Shown here in pieces: positions 1 to 8,190 of a DNA stretch of 64,000 nt. The notes beneath the pieces were generated by a model, which searched no databases, was not told the DNA's origin, and saw only the letters and a program-made list of their open reading frames with translations. Made by a program: the position numbers and the translations under genes. Numbering within the stretch: position 1 is the stretch's first letter; the number at the start of each line of letters is the position of its first letter. Source of the DNA: Spirochaetaceae bacterium. Lineage in GTDB: Bacteria; Spirochaetota; Spirochaetia; B11-G9. The DNA lies in assembly GCA_015493635.1 (NCBI GenBank), contig WGCU01000053.1:813-64812 (forward strand), read 5' to 3'.

Positions 1-548
1 AAAAATCTATTTCTGTTCATGTACGACTGGTTATCCATAAATCCAATCCCTGTGGGAAAAGGAGGTTGATGAAGAAAAACCATCGTATCGTGGTTTGATG
101 CCAGTTCATCTTCAAGTGCATCGAGTTCACCATCTGTCAAACTTCCTGATGCTTTTCCGGGTTCCACAGAATCCAGGAGAATTATTTTCTTGCCATGTTC
201 CTGAAACGAGTGGAATATTCGGCTATCCTTATAATTTTTCAGGTATGAAAGTTCACTGAAAACCTCTGCCATATTTGCTTTATTATCGTGATTTCCCGGG
301 ATAATGTAGTAGGGGATGGTAATCCCTGACAGTAAATCTTTTGCAATCTCATAGGACGAGATACTTCCGTCGTCACTTACATCGCCGGTTATACAAAGAA
401 AATCTACGTTAAACGGCAGTTTGTTTATATGCCGTATAAAATTCTTTAAACTCTGCAAAGAATCAGATACTTCATATGCGTTTATACCGTTTCTACATAT
501 ATGAAAATCTGAGGCTTGAGGTATTGTCAGAAAATTTCTTCCCATCAT
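1..548 (-). CDS. Calcineurin-like metallophosphoesterase, CpdA/Icc/GpdQ type (3' end truncated by window edge)
   Basis: Manual translation from ATG at 548 (or 545): MMGRNFLTIPQASDFHIC...CITGDVSDDG...IIPGNHDNK...LLDSVEPGKASG...VFLHQPPF, i.e. DxH, GD, GNHD and H metal-ligand motifs. RBS AGAGGGA upstream. Open to position 1; absent from ORF track because no stop lies in the window. Confidence 0.88.
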   Translation of the reverse strand, partial: MMGRNFLTIPQASDFHICRNGINAYEVSDSLQSLKNFIRHINKLPFNVDFLCITGDVSDDGSISSYEIAKDLLSGITIPYYIIPGNHDNKANMAEVFSELSYLKNYKDSRIFHSFQEHGKKIILLDSVEPGKASGSLTDGELDALEDELASNHDTMVFLHQPPFPTGIGFMDNQSYMNRNRF

Positions 549-570
549 TTTCCCTCTAAAGCTGCTGTTT

Positions 571-1668
571 TTAAGCAAGAACTTCTTTCATTATTTTTAG
601 AAAATCTTTACAGTCTTGCGGATATATTTGACCCATATTTGCAATCTGAAACATATTCTGTTCCAGAAGCGGACCCTTTCCCAAGTAGAGCACATACCCC
701 CGTTCTTCCATGGTACTGATAAAAGTATCAATATTCTTATCTTCAGGTAAAAACACAGAGGTCACTGTGTTAGACATAGTATGCTCATCAGAGAGGAGCA
801 TTTTTAAATGAAGATCCCTGACCCCTTGCCGTATAATTTCCGCGTCTTTTTTATATCGGGCTATTACCTCTTCCTGACCCTCCTCAAAAAGTACATCCAG
901 GGCTTTATTCAATGTAATAAACATGACGACTGAAGGGGTGTTAGGTGTTTGATTATGTTTCTCTGCTTCTCTTACATGATGTTGTAAATTCAAATAGACA
1001 TTTCTGGGAGGTACCGTATTTTCTATTTTTTTGTAGGCATTTTTGTTAATGCAGATAAAAGAAACACCGGGCTGCCCGGCAACTGCCTTATTCGGAACTC
1101 CGGTGCAGAAATCTATGTGGTCTCTGACAACATTAACCTCTTCGCCTCCTATGGCGCTTATTGCATCGACATGGTACATTTTGTTATATTTTACCGCTAG
1201 ATCTCCTACTTCATGAACAGGATTTACCATTCCCGTACTTGTTTCCTGAAATACCATTGAAATGAGACTGATATCCTGATCATTTTTTAAGGCTGTCTCT
1301 ATTCTTCCTAGATCAGGAGACGTTCCCCATTCAAATTCAAGCAGATTTAAACCGAGGTGGTAACATTCAATGATATCTTTCAACCGGTTACCGAATACAC
1401 CGTTTGTTATAAGGAGTACCTTTTTCCCATCTCCAACAACCGACGATAATACTGTTTCATTTGAAGATGTTCCTGAGCCGCTTACAACAACGGTGGTATA
1501 TTCTTCTTCCGTTGCACGGAAGAGGCGTATGAGTTTTTTCCGAACCTCTCCATATACATGTTCAAACGAGGGCCTTCTGTGGCATAGATCCGGTGCTAAA
1601 GCAGCTTCTTTTACTCTTTTGTCCGTTAATACCGGGCCTGGCGCAAATAAAAATTTCCTTTCGAGCAT
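571..1668 (-). CDS. PLP-dependent class V aminotransferase, PhnW/AEP-transaminase-like (substrate uncertain)
   Basis: Motifs FAPGP, GSGTSSNE, NGVFGNR, ETSTG, DAISAIGG, PNK (PLP lysine); RBS GGAGG. C-terminal FQIANMG instead of FRIGxxG. Confidence 0.85.
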   Translation of the reverse strand: MLERKFLFAPGPVLTDKRVKEAALAPDLCHRRPSFEHVYGEVRKKLIRLFRATEEEYTTVVVSGSGTSSNETVLSSVVGDGKKVLLITNGVFGNRLKDIIECYHLGLNLLEFEWGTSPDLGRIETALKNDQDISLISMVFQETSTGMVNPVHEVGDLAVKYNKMYHVDAISAIGGEEVNVVRDHIDFCTGVPNKAVAGQPGVSFICINKNAYKKIENTVPPRNVYLNLQHHVREAEKHNQTPNTPSVVMFITLNKALDVLFEEGQEEVIARYKKDAEIIRQGVRDLHLKMLLSDEHTMSNTVTSVFLPEDKNIDTFISTMEERGYVLYLGKGPLLEQNMFQIANMGQIYPQDCKDFLKIMKEVLA

Positions 1669-1706
1669 TGTCTCTCCTCCGATTGGATATAGCTAAACTA
1701 GGTAAT

Positions 1707-1767
1707 ATGATATCTAGTTGTCAAGTTGTTATGATAACCTTATAACACAAATTAAATGACAAGTCAA
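1707..1767 (-). promoter_or_regulatory. sigma70-type promoter of the aminotransferase with overlapping operator
   Basis: Minus strand TTGACT (1767-1762), 17 bp, TATAAG (1744-1739); palindrome TGTTAT-N9-ATAACA at 1727-1747; ATGATATC at 1707-1714. Colinear with 6627-6687. Confidence 0.75.
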
Positions 1768-1804
1768 GAAATTCTTACATAAAGGTTCTCATGATATTTT
1801 AATG

Positions 1805-1836
1805 AAACTTCTGCAGTAAGCCAGCAGAAGTTTTTT
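1805..1836. terminator. Intrinsic terminator after dctM (potentially bidirectional)
   Basis: Inverted repeat AAACTTCTGC (1805-1814) / GCAGAAGTTT (1824-1833) with A/T tracts on both sides, about 80 bp after the dctM stop. Confidence 0.7.
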
Positions 1837-1916
1837 CTACGAAAAATAGAATAGGTCATAATCCCTGGATCTCATTCTCTCATTCTCCCTTGGGGTTATG
1901 ACCATTTTGAGATGTA

Positions 1917-3236
1917 TCAATTACCGAAATACTTGTAAGGTAGCCATGTAACAATATCCGGAAACAGAATCAAAATTGCAATTGTTCCTGCCATTATAAA
2001 TACAAAGGGAACTATTGATCGATATATATCTCCAATTGTAATTTCTTTGGGGGCCATAGCTTTCATAAGAAAAAGATTATACCCGAAAGGAGGAGTCAGA
2101 TAAGCTATCTGACATGTGATGGTATAAAGCACACCATACCAGATTGGATTAAATCCTAAACTTATTACCAACGGGATATACAGGGGAGCAACGATGATCA
2201 GCATAGCAGTATCATCAAGAAAAGTTCCTAAAAGAAGGAAAGAAACCTGCATGGAGACAATCGTTCCAATCGGCCCAAATCCATGGCTAAGGAAGAGCGT
2301 TTTGATAGCATGCACAGCTCCAAGACCATCAAAAATTGCAGCAAAAGCCATTGCTGACATAACAACCCACATAAACATGGCACTTACACTTAACGATTGG
2401 GTCATGACCTTGTTCATAACCTTCCAGTTTAACCGCTTTTTTATCGCGGCAGCAATAATGGTAGCAACGGCACCGGTAGCAGCACTCTCAACCAGGCTTG
2501 TTACTCCCATGAAAAATAGTCCTGACATCATCAAGATAATAAAGAGAGGGAGAATCCCGCCGCGCAGTGCATGAATTTTTTCTTTAAACGGTACGTCCCA
2601 TTCTTCTCTGGACAATGCCGGTCCTAATTTTGGTTGGATCTTACACCGGACAACAATATAGATAACAAATAATGTTGCCATTAAAAGACCCGGCATAACA
2701 CCGGCCAGCCAGAGTTGTCCTACCGGCTGTCTGGCAATCATGCCATAAAGCACCAGTACAACACTCGGAGGTATCAAAATACCCAAGGAACTACCAGCCT
2801 GAATGACTCCTGTTACCATTTTTTTGTCATATTTCTTTTTTAGCATTTCAGGAAGTGCAACACTGCTCCCGACGCTCATACCGGCAACGCTCAACCCATT
2901 AATAGCAGATATTATTGCCATAAGTATAATGGTCCCGATAGCTAAACCGCCTTTAAGGGAGCCCATCAAAATATGAATTAGTTTATACAGGTCTTCCGAT
3001 ATTTTTGACTCAGAAAAAAGATAACCGATGAATACAAAAATAGGCAGCGTAACAAGAGGATACCAGTTTATAAGGGTAAAAGCGGAATGAAACCCCATAT
3101 CTATACCACCGGGTCCCCAGAGAATGACTGCAAATATGGAAGCAACCCCTCCTATAACAGCATAAATATGCCGGCCTGACAGGAGTACAACAAACATGGT
3201 AAGAAACATCAATAATGCGATAAATGAATAACTCAC
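1917..3236 (-). CDS. dctM: TRAP transporter large permease
   Basis: About 12 hydrophobic helices; GSSLGILIPPS and LTPPFG motifs. Start placed at GTG 3236 (GGAGG upstream, GTGA overlap with dctQ stop) rather than 3263. Confidence 0.92.
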   Translation of the reverse strand: MSYSFIALLMFLTMFVVLLSGRHIYAVIGGVASIFAVILWGPGGIDMGFHSAFTLINWYPLVTLPIFVFIGYLFSESKISEDLYKLIHILMGSLKGGLAIGTIILMAIISAINGLSVAGMSVGSSVALPEMLKKKYDKKMVTGVIQAGSSLGILIPPSVVLVLYGMIARQPVGQLWLAGVMPGLLMATLFVIYIVVRCKIQPKLGPALSREEWDVPFKEKIHALRGGILPLFIILMMSGLFFMGVTSLVESAATGAVATIIAAAIKKRLNWKVMNKVMTQSLSVSAMFMWVVMSAMAFAAIFDGLGAVHAIKTLFLSHGFGPIGTIVSMQVSFLLLGTFLDDTAMLIIVAPLYIPLVISLGFNPIWYGVLYTITCQIAYLTPPFGYNLFLMKAMAPKEITIGDIYRSIVPFVFIMAGTIAILILFPDIVTWLPYKYFGN

Positions 3237-3781
3237 AGGTTTTCCTCCACATTTTTGATCCACGAAGTATCTTGACCGAGTGCTATGGTAATATCCTTTA
3301 TAAGTTCAGATATAACCTGCAATAACATTAATGAAATTCCTACTGTTGCAATTAACTTCATTGGTGCTATTGGTGGACCCCAAGCCGAATAATTTTTCTG
3401 CGCATATTTTATTGCAAATGAGGTACTGCTTATTCCCCCAAGTAAGAGTCCTGTTAGATACGCAAGACTGAACACAAATGTAATAACATCAACAATAGCT
3501 TTCTTTCTTCGTGACCATTTATCATAGAAAACATCCATTCTGACATGACCGCCGATGAGAAGAACAAAAGCACCTCCCAAGAGATAATAGGTACCGTTGA
3601 TAAATTCGGTCATTTCCAAAGCCCATTTGTCTGGATGATTAAAAATCGTTCTTGAAATGGCTTCATAAGTCAAAACACCTATCATCACCAGAATCAGATA
3701 TTTTATTACCTGACCTACTATTGTGCTTATTGAGTCTACAGAACGTACGTAAATTTTTAATGGCTTAATCATAAAATCCAT
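3233..3781 (-). CDS. dctQ: TRAP transporter small permease
   Basis: 4 TM segments, GHVRMDVFY motif, lies between dctP and dctM. Confidence 0.9.
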   Translation of the reverse strand: MDFMIKPLKIYVRSVDSISTIVGQVIKYLILVMIGVLTYEAISRTIFNHPDKWALEMTEFINGTYYLLGGAFVLLIGGHVRMDVFYDKWSRRKKAIVDVITFVFSLAYLTGLLLGGISSTSFAIKYAQKNYSAWGPPIAPMKLIATVGISLMLLQVISELIKDITIALGQDTSWIKNVEENL

Positions 3782-3904: not shown

Positions 3905-4999
3905 TTATTTACCGCACGTATAGGGAGGACCCGCTTTTGCTCTAACTGCTGCGTATTTCTTGAAAGCTGCAATTACTCTAGCAGAACGGGGACTCTTTTT
4001 GGAAAGTGTATCCCAGTACTTTTCAGCCTGTTTGTCAACGCCTGTCCACTCATTTGCCGGGATTGATGTAAGTTCCATTTTGTCACCACTCGTCCGGTAT
4101 TTAGCTTCACCCCACCAGTACCAGTTCAATCTATAATAATTTGATGCCTGAATTGTCATCATCAGCAGCCTCTGTAAATGATCAGGAAGAGCTTTCCATG
4201 ATTTTGTATTTACAAAGAATCCGCCGGACCATGCACCTGAAATAGGATTAGTCAATAAATATTTACATACATCAGCTACTCCGGTAGTGTAAAGTTCTGT
4301 GGCACCTGACCAGGATACTCCATCGAGCATCCCTGTCTGAAGCGCCATCTGTACATCTTCAACCGGCATTACTACAGGTACAACACCGTATGTTTCCTCA
4401 AGAAATTTGCCATTGAAAAGGGATGTAAAAAGTCTTAATCCTTTAAGATCTTTTACATGACGGATTGGTTTATTACTGGCAATAAGACAAGGATCCCAGC
4501 TGCCCTGAGCCAGCCAGGTTACACCTGGTATCTCATCATAAGCCTCTTTCCAGATCTCATTCAAACCATAACGATTCCACAAAACGTCAATATCAAGTCC
4601 TATTCTCCCTGCAGCTGGAAAATATGCGGAGAATATTGCAACATCAGCAGGTGAACCCATGGACTCATCATCACTGACAACCATATCTAAAGTTCCTTTT
4701 TGAAGAGCGTTAAACATTTCCCCTTGAGGGACCAGCTGATCAGCTCCGTATAATTCAATTTCCATTTCTCCATTGGCGATCTTGTTAAATTCTTTAACCT
4801 TGTTGCCAAAGATTTCATCGTTCATTGATGGGCCGGCATACGTTTGCAGCCTCCACTTAATCATTTTCTTTTTTGGTGCAGCCTGCGCAGTTCCTCCTGT
4901 TTCTGCCTTTTGGCCGCAACTAATGAACACTATGGAAGCCATTACTACCAATGCAGTAAGTCCCAAAACCAAGGGTCGCTTAAAAAGATTTTTTTTCAC
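3905..4999 (-). CDS. dctP: TRAP substrate-binding lipoprotein (DctP/TakP family, non-carboxylate type)
   Basis: GTG start with AGGAGG; signal peptide with lipobox FISC; WRLQTYAG, DLKGLRLFT, LQTGMLDG motifs. Confidence 0.9.
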   Translation of the reverse strand: MKKNLFKRPLVLGLTALVVMASIVFISCGQKAETGGTAQAAPKKKMIKWRLQTYAGPSMNDEIFGNKVKEFNKIANGEMEIELYGADQLVPQGEMFNALQKGTLDMVVSDDESMGSPADVAIFSAYFPAAGRIGLDIDVLWNRYGLNEIWKEAYDEIPGVTWLAQGSWDPCLIASNKPIRHVKDLKGLRLFTSLFNGKFLEETYGVVPVVMPVEDVQMALQTGMLDGVSWSGATELYTTGVADVCKYLLTNPISGAWSGGFFVNTKSWKALPDHLQRLLMMTIQASNYYRLNWYWWGEAKYRTSGDKMELTSIPANEWTGVDKQAEKYWDTLSKKSPRSARVIAAFKKYAAVRAKAGPPYTCGK

Positions 5000-5046: not shown

Positions 5047-6540
5047 TTAAGTCCGATATTCCAAAATTCCAATCACTTTAAATAATTTTTCCCAGATACG
5101 AAAACGTTCATCAAGGAAAGGATCAAACGGCTCTTGAAAAACAATTGAATCCAAATTAAAGGCTAAAATATCATCATAGCTTTTCAGAAGCCCCATTTCC
5201 AAAGACGCAAGAAAAAAACAACCTAATGAAGTAAGATCCTCATTCTTAGATTTAATAATTTTAATACCAGTTAGTTGGGCAATGGTCTTAAGAATATAAC
5301 GGGACTTGCTGACTCTGCCGTCAACAGAAAGATTTCTTATTTCAATACCTGTTTCTTTCTCTATAAGTTTAATGTTTTGTACTATTCTAAAAGCAATTGC
5401 CTCCAGAACAGAACGAACCAAATCACTTTTGGTAGTTTGTAAACTCATGCCGAGAAATGCAGCAAAAGGCTCACTCTTCCAGTAGGGAGCTGAAACGCCG
5501 GAAAGAGCAGGAATAAAGAAGGGTTGTGTAACAGGCTTGATATTTTCAATAGTATCAATATCAGAATATTCTTCTAACAGGTCGTTTTTTTTAAGCCATT
5601 CTATTGCTGAGCCTACTGAATATATTTGACCCTCATATATATATGATTTTTGATCAAACATTTGAGGAAAAAGAGATTTTATAATTATACTGCTTTTATT
5701 TTTGGAATCTTTTCCACTGTTTACTTGTAAAAATCCACCGGTACCCAAGGTTAATTTGGCTTCACCTTTTCTGAAACATCGATGCCCAACAAGCGCTGCC
5801 TGTTGATCTACGACAGAAACCAGAATGGGAGCCTTGACCCCGAAACACATTTCAGGATCAGTTGTACCATAATTATTCATGGCCGGGGAAATAGCCGGCA
5901 TACTCTTACTATTAAGGTGAAAAAAATTAAGTATCTTATTATCCCATTGCAATGTTTCAATATCCAGCAGCATCGTCCGTGAAGCAGTTGTAAAATCAGA
6001 TTTTAATTCTTTTTTGCTGATTAATTTGTTAATTAACCATACTTCTGATGTTGCCATTACAAGATTGTTATTATCCATCTCTTTTTTTACATTACTGACG
6101 TTTTGAACTAACCATTCCATTTTGGCAGCTGAAAAATATGAACTTGCAAACAATCCTGTTCTATTCTTGACGTAATCATTTAAATCGGTATCTTCGATTA
6201 ATTGTTGAATCCGATCTTCTCCTCTTCCGTCCTGCCAGCTGATTGCATTATATAAAGGAGACAAATCATTTTTTCTGAACGGAATAATCGTTTCTCCCTG
6301 GTTATCAATAGCTACAGCACATACTGTTTCAGGATGAATTTTTGACTTTTTAATAACATCTTCAATACCTTTTCGAATGCTTCCTAATACTTCTTCAGGA
6401 TTCTGCTCTATAAAATTTTCAGAACTTTCAACAAAACGGATAATATTTGTAGATTCTGCTATTTTACTGCCGGAAGTATCATACAAAATAACCTTTGTAG
6501 AGCTTGTGCCTTGATCAATAGTAAGTATATATTTTTTCAC
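5047..6540 (-). CDS. FGGY-family carbohydrate kinase, glycerol-kinase-like but divergent
   Basis: DQGTSSTK, NQGET, WQDGR, YFSAAK, ASRTML, DQQAAL, GTGGF, APYW motifs; GTG start with GGAG. Confidence 0.85.
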   Translation of the reverse strand: MKKYILTIDQGTSSTKVILYDTSGSKIAESTNIIRFVESSENFIEQNPEEVLGSIRKGIEDVIKKSKIHPETVCAVAIDNQGETIIPFRKNDLSPLYNAISWQDGRGEDRIQQLIEDTDLNDYVKNRTGLFASSYFSAAKMEWLVQNVSNVKKEMDNNNLVMATSEVWLINKLISKKELKSDFTTASRTMLLDIETLQWDNKILNFFHLNSKSMPAISPAMNNYGTTDPEMCFGVKAPILVSVVDQQAALVGHRCFRKGEAKLTLGTGGFLQVNSGKDSKNKSSIIIKSLFPQMFDQKSYIYEGQIYSVGSAIEWLKKNDLLEEYSDIDTIENIKPVTQPFFIPALSGVSAPYWKSEPFAAFLGMSLQTTKSDLVRSVLEAIAFRIVQNIKLIEKETGIEIRNLSVDGRVSKSRYILKTIAQLTGIKIIKSKNEDLTSLGCFFLASLEMGLLKSYDDILAFNLDSIVFQEPFDPFLDERFRIWEKLFKVIGILEYRT

Positions 6541-6618: not shown

Positions 6619-6687
6619 ATAACAACATGATATCAAATTATACGGTTGTTATGATATGATAATAACATGAATATATGACCATGTCAA
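6619..6687 (-). promoter_or_regulatory. sigma70-type promoter of the kinase-TRAP operon with overlapping operator
   Basis: Minus strand TTGACA (6687-6682), 17 bp, TATTAT (6664-6659); palindrome TGTTAT-N9-ATAACA at 6647-6667; ATGATATC at 6627-6634; extra half-site ATAACAAC at 6619-6626. Confidence 0.75.
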
Positions 6688-6816
6688 TTATTTTTTTTAA
6701 CTTTTTGCTACCCCTGCTGGGGTAATAAAAATCCGCCTATAAGTGGGGAGTTTAAGGTTGTTAACGGATATCTAATAGTGTGGTATCTGAGAAAAAGAAA
6801 TTTATACACGTACAGA

Positions 6817-8190
6817 TTAAATGGAGCCGCTCAGTTTCAATACCATGGATCGGAAGGTATCCCCACGGTCAAACTCGTTTAAAAACATACCGAATGAAGT
6901 TGCGCCGGGAGAAAAAATAACAGAGTCGCCCCGTCTGCTGTCGTTATAAGCTGCTGAGACAGCATCCTGAAGATGTACGAAGGGTCCCTGGAAAGAGATG
7001 TGCTCAGCCTTAAGAAGAGGTATCATTCTGTCTGTTGCTGTGCCTTTCAGAAGATAAATGGATTCCGGTATTCGTGCGGCTTCGGCAAATCCGGTAAAAT
7101 CAAGATTCTTGTCTGTCCCCCCGCAAATAAGAAGAACATGCTCCTGAATGCTTTCGACGGCAGCTGCCGCAGCCTGAGGAATCGTTGAAGCGCTGTCATT
7201 GTACCAGGTAACCCCGTTTATAACCGTTACTTTTTCCATACGGTGCGGAATACCACTAAAAGCGGAAAGTTCTTGTGCAATAAAATTGTTATCCAGCCCC
7301 TGAAAATTAAGAACGGAGGCAGCGTAGAGAAGGTTCAGTTTGTTGTGTTTCCCCTTGATATTTGTTTCTTCAGGAAGAACCTTTTTTACCTTTCCGTTTT
7401 CCTGAATAAAACCGGATTCTTCTGTCAGAAACGCACCGTCAATAGAAGGGGGCAGGGGGTCCTTTGAAACAAAAAAAGATTTTGCAGTTGATTCAGAGGC
7501 AAAAATTCTTCCTGTTGGTTCATCGAAATTGCAGATAAGATGACTAGTACTGTTCATATCCTGATATATTAGTTTTTTGTCGTCAATATATTCCTGCATA
7601 CTTGAATATCTGTTCTGGTGATCATGCATTATATTTGTTATAACTGCTGTTTTGGGATACAGCAGATGCTTATCCTTGAGATCCGCCAGCTGCCAGGAGG
7701 AAAGTTCAAGAATAACAGGATCTTCCCTCTCTACGGTACATTTATCTGCAAAAGTAAGGGGAGAGACGGTAATATTTCCTCCAAGTTTTGTTTCGGGAAA
7801 ATGTTTTTTCAATACATGGTATATGGCTGAAACGGTTGTTGATTTCCCCTTGCTTCCGGTAACAGCTATTAAAGGCCGTTTGTTCAGAGAAAGGAAAATT
7901 GATATATCTGTCTCTACCTGTTTTGCTGCTCTCAGGAAGGGGGATGAAGGGAGTACTGCCGGGTTTTTAATAACGATGTCCGCTGTTTCAAAATCTGAAA
8001 GTTTATGTTCTCCCAGAGTATAAGATATCGGGTACTTTTCAAGTTTTTGCATGGATGGGGCAAGGACTTCTTCAGATCTCAGATCTGTCACTGTGACACG
8101 GGAACCGTGTTCTGCGAAAAAAAGAGCGGAGGCGAGCCCTCCTCCGTGAAGGCCAAGTCCCATAACGGTTACTTTTATATTAAAATTCAA
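6817..8190 (-). CDS. murD: UDP-N-acetylmuramoyl-L-alanine--D-glutamate ligase
   Basis: GLGLHGG, TGSKGKSTT P-loop, ELSSWQL, HQNRY, NDSASTIP, SPGATSF...F..RG motifs; exact start uncertain (TTG). Confidence 0.92.
   Translation of the reverse strand: MNFNIKVTVMGLGLHGGGLASALFFAEHGSRVTVTDLRSEEVLAPSMQKLEKYPISYTLGEHKLSDFETADIVIKNPAVLPSSPFLRAAKQVETDISIFLSLNKRPLIAVTGSKGKSTTVSAIYHVLKKHFPETKLGGNITVSPLTFADKCTVEREDPVILELSSWQLADLKDKHLLYPKTAVITNIMHDHQNRYSSMQEYIDDKKLIYQDMNSTSHLICNFDEPTGRIFASESTAKSFFVSKDPLPPSIDGAFLTEESGFIQENGKVKKVLPEETNIKGKHNKLNLLYAASVLNFQGLDNNFIAQELSAFSGIPHRMEKVTVINGVTWYNDSASTIPQAAAAAVESIQEHVLLICGGTDKNLDFTGFAEAARIPESIYLLKGTATDRMIPLLKAEHISFQGPFVHLQDAVSAAYNDSRRGDSVIFSPGATSFGMFLNEFDRGDTFRSMVLKLSGSI

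Follow-up and report, generated by a model that had tools for sequence, protein, structure and literature searches.

A PhnW-like enzyme with glutamine at the conserved arginine position, linked to an altered glycerol kinase paralogue and a predicted amine importer: a candidate amino-alcohol module in a Spirochaetaceae bacterium

Introduction

The closest described relatives of the gene considered here are the 2-aminoethylphosphonate (AEP) transaminases of the PhnW type; the gene itself lies at positions 571-1668 (minus strand) of a 64,000-nucleotide stretch of contig WGCU01000053.1 from a Spirochaetaceae bacterium (assembly GCA_015493635.1), which is called the window throughout. Its product, a pyridoxal phosphate (PLP) enzyme, resembles the PhnW and AEPT proteins of known structure (1m32, 9kk8, 7e7g and the AEPT domain of Tde1415, 6pd1) in the class V fold (29-32% identity), the Schiff-base lysine, the aspartate at the pyridine nitrogen, the 'YxGK' motif and a dimer-type architecture, as well as in the amine substrate without an alpha-carboxylate that is proposed for it here. 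It differs from them in having glutamine in place of Arg340 and phenylalanine in place of the NGxYG tyrosine, in scoring below the PhnW family cut-offs, and in its linkage to a paralogue of glycerol kinase (GlpK) and a predicted amine importer.

All parts of the locus belong to known superfamilies, and phosphorylation of an amino alcohol followed by PLP chemistry is itself an established logic, as with ethanolamine kinase and ETNPPL or aminopropanol kinase and its phospho-lyase; in those routes, however, the kinase is of the APH/choline-kinase type and the PLP enzyme of class III, whereas here a GlpK paralogue is paired with a class V enzyme. The reaction proposed for the window enzyme is known in the reverse direction for Cj1437 (which we take to have a class I/II fold) and RtxA; these enzymes are biosynthetic. 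A further comparison is offered by SerC (1bjo) and plant AGT1 (6pk1/6pk3), in which a His-Arg pair from the partner subunit contacts either a phosphate mimic or the side chain of the substrate and the equivalent of Arg347 (position 341 here) is the alpha-carboxylate ligand (PMC6797613). The His30-Arg31 ('HR') pair of the window enzyme was aligned onto His41-Arg42 of E. coli SerC by profile alignment; identity to these proteins is nevertheless about 13-19%, and SerC keeps the alpha-carboxylate arginine, which the Gln-type clade described below does not. For uptake, the comparison is with Csal_0678, the ethanolamine-binding protein of a transporter of the tripartite ATP-independent periplasmic (TRAP) type, homologues of which have been termed EtoX at e-60 (PMC10132767). 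The window encodes a close homologue of this binding protein with the platform glutamate aligned but, unlike the EtoX gamma-glutamyl ethanolamine pathway, the module has a kinase and a PLP enzyme and no gamma-glutamylase or dehydrogenases.

No description of a kinase/PLP-enzyme pair of this kind was found in the literature searched, the coverage of which was incomplete. It is concluded that the genes described below probably constitute a module for the uptake and catabolism of an amino alcohol; a more specific version, with serinol as substrate and a transaminase as PLP enzyme, is tentatively preferred, its chances being put a little below even. An earlier note on this DNA, made from the letters alone, had drawn attention to the missing arginine; what goes beyond it is the operon setting, the matching change in the kinase and the Gln state as the apparent mark of a large family with a biosynthetic branch.

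The PLP enzyme and its active site

571..1668, minus strand: Gln-type PhnW-like class V PLP enzyme, 365 amino acids (open reading frame, PF00266, alignments, AlphaFold2 model)

The protein matched the PF00266 domain (E 1.6e-21), and its nearest chains in the PDB, as identified with phmmer, were Salmonella PhnW (1m32, E 1.3e-47), the Treponema denticola PntC-AEPT fusion (6pd1) and Vibrio PhnW (9kk8). The minus strand of positions 628-660 translates as QNMFQIANMGQ, with the CAG codon of Gln341 at 646-648, and the query 'mFQIaNMG' was aligned with 'FRIGNIG' (1m32, 9kk8) and 'FRIANIG' (6pd1), which places Gln341 at the position of PhnW Arg340. The replacement of the FRIG arginine claimed in the earlier note was thus borne out by the reading frame, the codon and three structure-derived alignments. 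The same alignments upheld its statement that the PLP-binding motifs and the catalytic lysine are intact, as the Schiff-base Lys194 was kept ('vpNKav' aligning with 'saNKci') along with Asp168 of 'HVDAIS', the residue that contacts the pyridine nitrogen. Phenylalanine was found at position 92, where the NGxYG motif of Arg-type enzymes has tyrosine, and His30-Arg31 was located within an N-terminal 'CHRR' motif.

An AlphaFold2 model, built from an alignment of 38 sequences (pLDDT 96.6), superposed on PhnW 1m32 with a TM score of 0.93-0.95 and a root-mean-square deviation of 1.5-1.6 Å, so that the structure prediction proposed in the earlier note returned a PhnW-like fold with residue 341 on strand 339-343. 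The PF00266 match, Lys194, Asp168 and this superposition place the protein in the class V aminotransferase fold. They do not place it among the PhnW/AEP transaminases, from which it is separated by the loss of Arg340 and the NGxYG tyrosine, by the absence of phosphonate partner genes and by scores under all three curated PhnW cut-offs: 282.7 against 360.8 for TIGR03301 (its best family match), 220.7 against 296 for NF010006 and 215.8 against 400.8 for TIGR02326. The remark that no phnX or pepM lies nearby was found to hold genome-wide, since the source genome (97.9% complete) contained no PhnX over cut-off and no phosphoenolpyruvate (PEP) mutase; PhnA and PhnY were not searched for.

On sequence grounds, therefore, the gene would appear not to encode an AEP transaminase. 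That the enzyme is nonetheless a normal AEP:pyruvate transaminase, with some other residue doing the work of Arg340, could be argued from the essentially PhnW-like fold, from TIGR03301 as best family match and from the gain of Arg32 in many close relatives, but is judged highly improbable: Arg32 is not conserved (27/38), all three PhnW models fall short of their cut-offs, neither PhnX over cut-off nor PEP mutase occurs in the genome, no PEP mutase motif was found at 80 loci of the sister branch, and the conserved partners are a kinase and apparent amine importers, not phosphonate-type genes such as PhnX, PhnA or PhnY. Arg32 was also considered as a compensating arginine and was dropped, given its patchy occurrence among the close relatives and the glutamate found there in the biosynthetic branch.

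The Gln-type clade

Column 341 was glutamine throughout the 38-sequence alignment of relatives, with identity down to 52%, and glutamine was likewise present in 120/120 best database matches (113 by motif scan, six read as 'FQAANMG', and P0112, an apparent motif exception that proved to be a false pattern match, glutamine being invariant in the alignment containing it). Due to this invariance the change from arginine cannot be ascribed to chance and is a trait of the family, not a lesion. A HMMER pass over 1.84 billion cluster representatives (50% identity) recovered 563 proteins at E <= 1e-30. Of the 150 that scored best, 61 had Gln at position 341, 73 had Arg and 5 had His. In a tree of the representatives the Gln-types and Arg-types occupied two largely contiguous blocks, and only columns 92 and 341 separated them cleanly, with phenylalanine at position 92 in 54/61 Gln-types and tyrosine in 67/73 Arg-types, while Arg31, Arg95 and Arg280 were common to both clades. 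As positions 341 and 92 co-vary across the clade, the classical anion site (Arg340 and the NGxYG tyrosine) seems to have been dismantled as a unit. The Gln-type enzymes would thereby form a large, uncharacterised sister clade of the Arg-type AEP transaminases.

GTDB was scanned with the family motifs, using one genome per species, and 356 relatives were found. The best 80 came from Spirochaetota, Atribacterota, Chloroflexota, Bacillota, Desulfobacterota and Synergistota, the Bacillota carriers among them including Anaerovorax, Hornefia, Hominibacterium, Lentihominibacter and Eubacterium nodatum.

The linked kinase, importer and phosphoesterase

The gene for the PLP enzyme is one of six co-directional genes on the minus strand, the other five being as follows:

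5047..6540, minus strand: GlpK paralogue (FGGY kinase), 497 amino acids (family models, alignment to E. coli GlpK)
3905..4999, minus strand: TRAP solute-binding lipoprotein DctP (homology to Csal_0678/EtoX)
3233..3781, minus strand: TRAP small permease DctQ, overlapping dctM (domain models)
1917..3263, minus strand: TRAP large permease DctM (domain and family models)
3..578, minus strand: metallophosphoesterase, first 192/288 amino acids, running past the window start (PF00149, PDB matches)

The kinase scored 385 bits against a GlpK cut-off of 590 and reads 'IDNQGET' where canonical GlpK has 'ITNQRET'. In the numbering of mature E. coli GlpK the changes are Arg83 to Gly, Thr80 to Asp and Cys105 to Asp, and Glu84, Trp103, Tyr135, Asp245, Gln246 and Phe270 are retained by the linked kinases in the alignment to the E. 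coli enzyme. Arg83, which contacts glycerol hydroxyls, belongs to a set of five residues that determine the specificity of GlpK; the other four (Glu84, Tyr135, Asp245, Phe270) are kept, and with Arg83 lost the protein falls outside GlpK proper. All three substitutions (T81D, R84G and C106D in full E. coli numbering) were present together in 52/52 linked kinases, which came from several phyla. Module genomes also had a canonical GlpK reading 'ITNQRET' (712-735 bits), that of the source genome lying elsewhere at 724 bits. One genome (G000, locus L085) holds a third GlpK-like gene, at G000:C99:14973-16490, which scored 430 bits and is likewise under the cut-off. At two of the related loci an antisense frame over the linked kinase is longer than the kinase itself (587-592 amino acids; L041:8186-9949, L027:8183-9961).

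Loss of a cationic ligand residue together with the appearance of two carboxylates beside the pocket would be expected if a substrate hydroxyl had become an ammonium group. The altered pocket points to the amine itself as the substrate of the kinase, in which case the PLP enzyme would receive a phospho-amino-alcohol. The reverse order, in which serinol would be transaminated to dihydroxyacetone or 3-amino-1,2-propanediol to glyceraldehyde before phosphorylation of the triose, is regarded as improbable. It would suit the loss of the arginine, the substrate then having no anionic group at all, and GldA (glycerol/dihydroxyacetone) lies downstream in 4 loci, while in Chloroflexota a transaldolase/FSA-family protein stands in place of the adjacent kinase. 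Ordinary GlpK, however, accepts dihydroxyacetone and glyceraldehyde, so that a dedicated paralogue with Arg83 lost and two aspartates gained in 52/52 cases would go unexplained by a triose unless the substrate were cationic; moreover, His30-Arg31 is conserved, and in the biosynthetic branch the enzyme feeds a cytidylyltransferase, which requires a phosphate monoester.

DctP matched the Csal_0678 structures (PDB 4uab/4xf5) with an E-value of 2.3e-108, well past e-60, and its sequence 'GITEDY' was aligned with 'GATELY' at the acidic platform glutamate, whose identity as Glu220 assumes a numbering offset; as far as alignment can tell, the protein would qualify as an EtoX homologue. The metallophosphoesterase (PF00149) shows the DxH, GD, GNHD and GHxH motifs. 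Its best PDB matches, 2dxl/2zo9/3d03 (E 7e-25), are titled 'Phosphohydrolase' and are presumably the glycerophosphodiesterase GpdQ of Enterobacter aerogenes.

Conserved gene neighbourhoods

Neighbourhoods were surveyed at 81 kinase-branch loci by clustering the open reading frames and annotating representatives. Collection of the FQI-motif homologues and their surroundings, as the earlier note had suggested, gave glutamine clade-wide and a GlpK-like kinase as the constant partner of the Gln-type gene. The 'D-x-x-G-E' paralogue lay at <=7 kb from the Gln-type gene in 31/42 loci with >=6 kb of sequence on both sides, and canonical GlpK was found at 0/81 loci. Importers varied by lineage: Spirochaetota and Atribacterota had the TRAP type, Bacillota an APC permease accompanied by an AraC regulator, and some loci a PotD/PotF-like ATP-binding cassette (ABC) system; the EtoX-like TRAP, PotD/PotF-like ABC and APC systems are all predicted to be amine-type. 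The proposal in the earlier note that substrate or chemistry differs from AEP transamination, with an amino-alcohol (phosphate) transaminase, a lyase/deaminase and a decarboxylase among its candidates, gains support from the sub-threshold PhnW scores, the co-variation of Gln341 with Phe92, the lack of PhnX and PEP mutase genes, and the altered kinase with its apparent amine importers.

Occasional neighbours were GldA, MttB, an amidase, an M20 peptidase, glyceraldehyde-3-phosphate dehydrogenase (GAPDH) and DeoR/GntR/LysR regulators; a GpdQ-like esterase was present at 5 loci, and the Chloroflexota loci held a divergent transaldolase-family protein and a dimethylglycine-dehydrogenase-like protein. 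EutB was found in 4/55 module-bearing genomes compared with 43/201 in one related order (Fisher one-sided p ~0.01, uncorrected for phylogeny and for the incompleteness of metagenome-assembled genomes), an anti-correlation that is suggestive but confounded.

The main rival to the serinol route is a B12-independent catabolism of ethanolamine, in which the TRAP, ABC or APC system would take up ethanolamine, the GlpK paralogue would be an ethanolamine kinase and the Gln-type enzyme an O-phosphoethanolamine phospho-lyase yielding acetaldehyde, ammonium and phosphate, with no need for a 2-oxo acid. Although considered rather unlikely, it is a serious alternative because of the ethanolamine-like importer (the Csal_0678 match with its aligned platform glutamate), the presumed resemblance of the operon's esterase to GpdQ, an enzyme that cleaves glycerophosphoethanolamine, and the lower frequency of EutB in module genomes. 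Loss of both carboxylate ligands (Arg341, Tyr92) would also fit an enzyme without an oxo-acid co-substrate, the MttB-like and dimethylglycine-dehydrogenase-like genes at some loci are as expected for choline-type demethylation, the known amino-alcohol routes supply the precedent, and ethanolamine is plentiful in gut, oral and digester habitats. Weighed against this, the kinase retains all of the three-carbon triol ligands but Arg83; one ATP would be spent per ethanolamine, and by our reckoning fermenters living where ammonium is plentiful would at best break even in energy; the neighbourhoods have no conserved acetaldehyde dehydrogenase or alcohol dehydrogenase, the iron-type alcohol dehydrogenase seen being of the GldA type; and EutB and the module occur together in four genomes.

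The same importer homology would suit a transaminase acting on phosphoethanolamine, the oxygen analogue of AEP, with glycolaldehyde phosphate as product and entry into pentose-phosphate metabolism through transaldolase- or transketolase-type enzymes, and the divergent transaldolase-family gene does adjoin the enzyme in five Chloroflexota loci. This reading is thought a poor prospect, as most loci contain no extra enzyme for glycolaldehyde phosphate, for which we know of no established route into central metabolism, and binding of the oxo acid presents the same problem as in the serinol route.

Two further features of the Bacillota loci were recorded. At about 20 of them a HisJ-family PHP phosphatase and a PhoR/PhoB-like pair lie convergently and directly 3' of the PLP gene (e.g. 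L069:10861-11688, L052:8345-9826); HisJ is of the histidinol-phosphate phosphatase type, whose substrate is an amino-alcohol phosphate, and the arrangement may reflect lineage synteny or a functional link. In 24 loci the genes for the APC permease and the AraC regulator flank one for a conserved 131-amino-acid protein with no Pfam or NCBIfam match (e.g. L067:6924-7322).

The biosynthetic branch and other Gln-type relatives

At 80 metagenome loci (L111-L190) the Gln-type gene was followed by genes for a CDP-alcohol phosphatidyltransferase and a LicC-like cytidylyltransferase (CDP, cytidine diphosphate), and the PEP mutase signature EDKxxxxxNS was found at 0/80 of these loci. The three-gene cassette was also identified on a plasmid of Sulfitobacter sp. 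SK012 (NZ_CP025806.1, L192:8001-10816), where the Gln-type enzyme reads 'FQVGNIG'. Nucleotidyltransferase domains are fused to some Gln-type domains, as on the Bacillus thuringiensis plasmid pYGD36 (L191:7272-17074), in which a 613-amino-acid nucleotidyltransferase/Gln-type fusion is followed by a second cytidylyltransferase and two nonribosomal peptide synthetase genes. The cassette may serve to make a CDP-activated amino-alcohol head group or solute. His30, Arg31, Asn70, Glu71, Phe92, Arg95, Trp114, Asp168, Lys194, Tyr225, Gln240, Thr241, Arg280, Tyr328, Lys331 and Gln341 are common to the kinase-linked and biosynthetic branches.

Since the cytidylyltransferase requires a phosphate monoester, the intermediate common to both contexts would be a phospho-amine of some origin other than PEP mutase. 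That one and the same active site is used after a kinase in one branch and ahead of CDP activation in the other is consistent with reversible interconversion of a central oxo-phosphate and a phospho-amine. The shared active-site residues also count against the phospho-lyase, which would be senseless in the biosynthetic branch unless reaction specificity varies between the branches; under that rival the biosynthetic enzyme would be a phosphoserine decarboxylase passing through the same quinonoid intermediate.

A decarboxylase also figures in a reading that is held to be a long shot, namely that the window operon is a supply operon in which the kinase (by salvage) and the PLP enzyme (de novo, e.g. 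as a phosphoserine decarboxylase) make one phospho-amino-alcohol for a CDP-activated head group that is assembled by genes elsewhere in the genome. The sister branch, with its PLP enzyme, cytidylyltransferase and CDP-alcohol phosphatidyltransferase, is clearly biosynthetic, and loss of an in-plane carboxylate anchor would suit a decarboxylase; in Campylobacter, Cj1436 and Cj1437 are reportedly related, which would show how near to each other decarboxylase and transaminase activities can be. Yet no cytidylyltransferase or phosphatidyltransferase is conserved at the 81 kinase-linked loci, where high-affinity importers and AraC/DeoR/GntR/LysR regulators, typical of catabolic operons, are found instead, with a diesterase, an amidase and demethylases as occasional neighbours.

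In a further subgroup (L070, L076 and L082, e.g. L082:7391-11080), Gln-type genes with 'CHRSKEF' and 'IQIANMG' motifs lie beside XylB-like FGGY kinases, not GlpK-like ones, and the loci also hold a hydroxypyruvate-isomerase-like protein, a HAD-IIA phosphatase and a PHP-type hydrolase; the subgroup may represent a parallel route for a longer amino-polyol. Two proteins, P0269 (940 amino acids) and P0270 (892 amino acids), combine Mur-ligase and Gln-type aminotransferase domains at 44-45% identity; because murD (6817-8190) lies just upstream of the module in the window, they may be gene-call fusions. The longer fused relatives comprised only Mur-ligase fusions and one 779-amino-acid protein, with no RtxA-like protein among them, which as a negative is weak evidence.

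Proposed pathway

The substitutions, their conservation across the clade, the gene linkage and the importer homology are observed; we infer from them which step follows which, what amino alcohol is used and what type of reaction takes place. The EtoX-like TRAP system would import a small cationic amino alcohol, which the GlpK paralogue would phosphorylate, the exchange of Arg83 for glycine and the two aspartates suiting an ammonium group. The Gln-type enzyme would then turn the phospho-amino-alcohol, which has no alpha-carboxylate, into a central metabolite, with Gln341 facing a neutral group and the phosphate held, in the manner of phosphoserine aminotransferase, by His30' and Arg31' from the partner subunit. 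In the tentatively preferred version serinol (2-amino-1,3-propanediol) would be converted to serinol phosphate and this, by reversible transamination, to dihydroxyacetone phosphate. Where phosphoserine has its carboxylate, serinol phosphate has CH2OH and phosphoethanolamine has hydrogen. The metallophosphoesterase may free the amino alcohol, or its phosphate, from phosphodiesters.

The serinol route is favoured because the kinase keeps every other three-carbon triol ligand, because dihydroxyacetone phosphate as product needs no further conserved enzyme, and because the route would be energy-yielding for fermenters. Its reversibility would moreover explain why one active site is found both after a kinase and before CDP activation, and sugar isomerases and XylB-like FGGY kinases adjoin related Gln-type genes, which also argues for it. 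The occasional GldA, transaldolase-like, GAPDH and DeoR neighbours are taken as favouring a three-carbon substrate.

Several points weigh against it. The weak point is that a transaminase must bind a 2-oxo acid, yet the usual ligands (Arg341 and the hydroxyl of Tyr92) are gone, and no clade-wide replacement arginine was found among the 38 close relatives or in the comparison with Arg-types. Arg-type AepZ-like enzymes generally have the 'HR' motif as well, so that it is not specific evidence; His30-Arg31 had been considered as a specific phosphoserine aminotransferase-like gain and was dropped on that account. The binding protein appears most similar to an ethanolamine binder, and Chloroflexota loci were found without an adjacent kinase, the 'DNQGET' kinase lying elsewhere in the genome beside an APC permease. 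Serinol is not known to be plentiful in such habitats; gut bacteria do produce N-acyl serinols, and capsules with serinol amides occur. For the clade as a whole, there is an even chance that it is an uncharacterised family interconverting a central oxo-phosphate and a phospho-amino-alcohol, with catabolic (kinase) and CDP head-group branches.

Operon structure and control regions

6659..6687, minus strand: promoter-like site TTGACA-17-TATTAT with TG, 11/12, 5' of the kinase gene (sequence match)
1669..1916, minus strand: 248-nucleotide gap from dctM to the PLP-enzyme gene (words read by eye)

The run of six genes, in the order kinase, DctP, DctQ, DctM, PLP enzyme and metallophosphoesterase, probably represents two co-regulated units. 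The start of the metallophosphoesterase gene overlaps the stop of the PLP-enzyme gene by 8 nucleotides, and the contig ends 812 nucleotides beyond the window start. The words ATCATAACAAC and GATATCAT were noted by eye in both upstream regions (minus strand, 1700-1760 and 6640-6690); as it shares these words with the region upstream of the kinase, the gap at 1669-1916 may hold a second, co-regulated promoter and operator. In the kinase-proximal copy an inverted repeat, ATAACAAC...GTTGTTAT, overlaps the promoter-like site and has the appearance of an operator. No regulator gene adjoins the module within the window.

Significance

Gln-type proteins are automatically annotated as AEP-pyruvate transaminase or as members of the alanine-glyoxylate aminotransferase family. 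The AEP transaminase label is probably wrong for about 40% of the nearest sequence clusters, which would inflate estimates of phosphonate metabolism. The kinase and the PLP enzyme also present what may be paired specificity switches, two successive enzymes each losing an arginine as the substrate goes from hydroxyl or acid to ammonium or neutral group. If the biosynthetic branch is as proposed, it would lead to a new phospholipid or solute, or to a bacterial route of the Kennedy type, in marine and soil bacteria.

If the catabolic proposal is correct, the module, which occurs in at least six phyla, would add a two-enzyme route leading from amino alcohols into glycolysis or on to acetaldehyde. 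Cultured gut and oral carriers of the module include Hominibacterium faecale, Anaerovorax odorimutans, Hornefia butyriciproducens, Lentihominibacter faecis and Brotomerdimonas butyrica, and the module would provide many anaerobes, among them human gut and oral Bacillota together with Spirochaetota, Atribacterota and Chloroflexota, with a B12-independent means of consuming serinol- or ethanolamine-type compounds through a GlpK-derived 'amino-glycerol kinase'.

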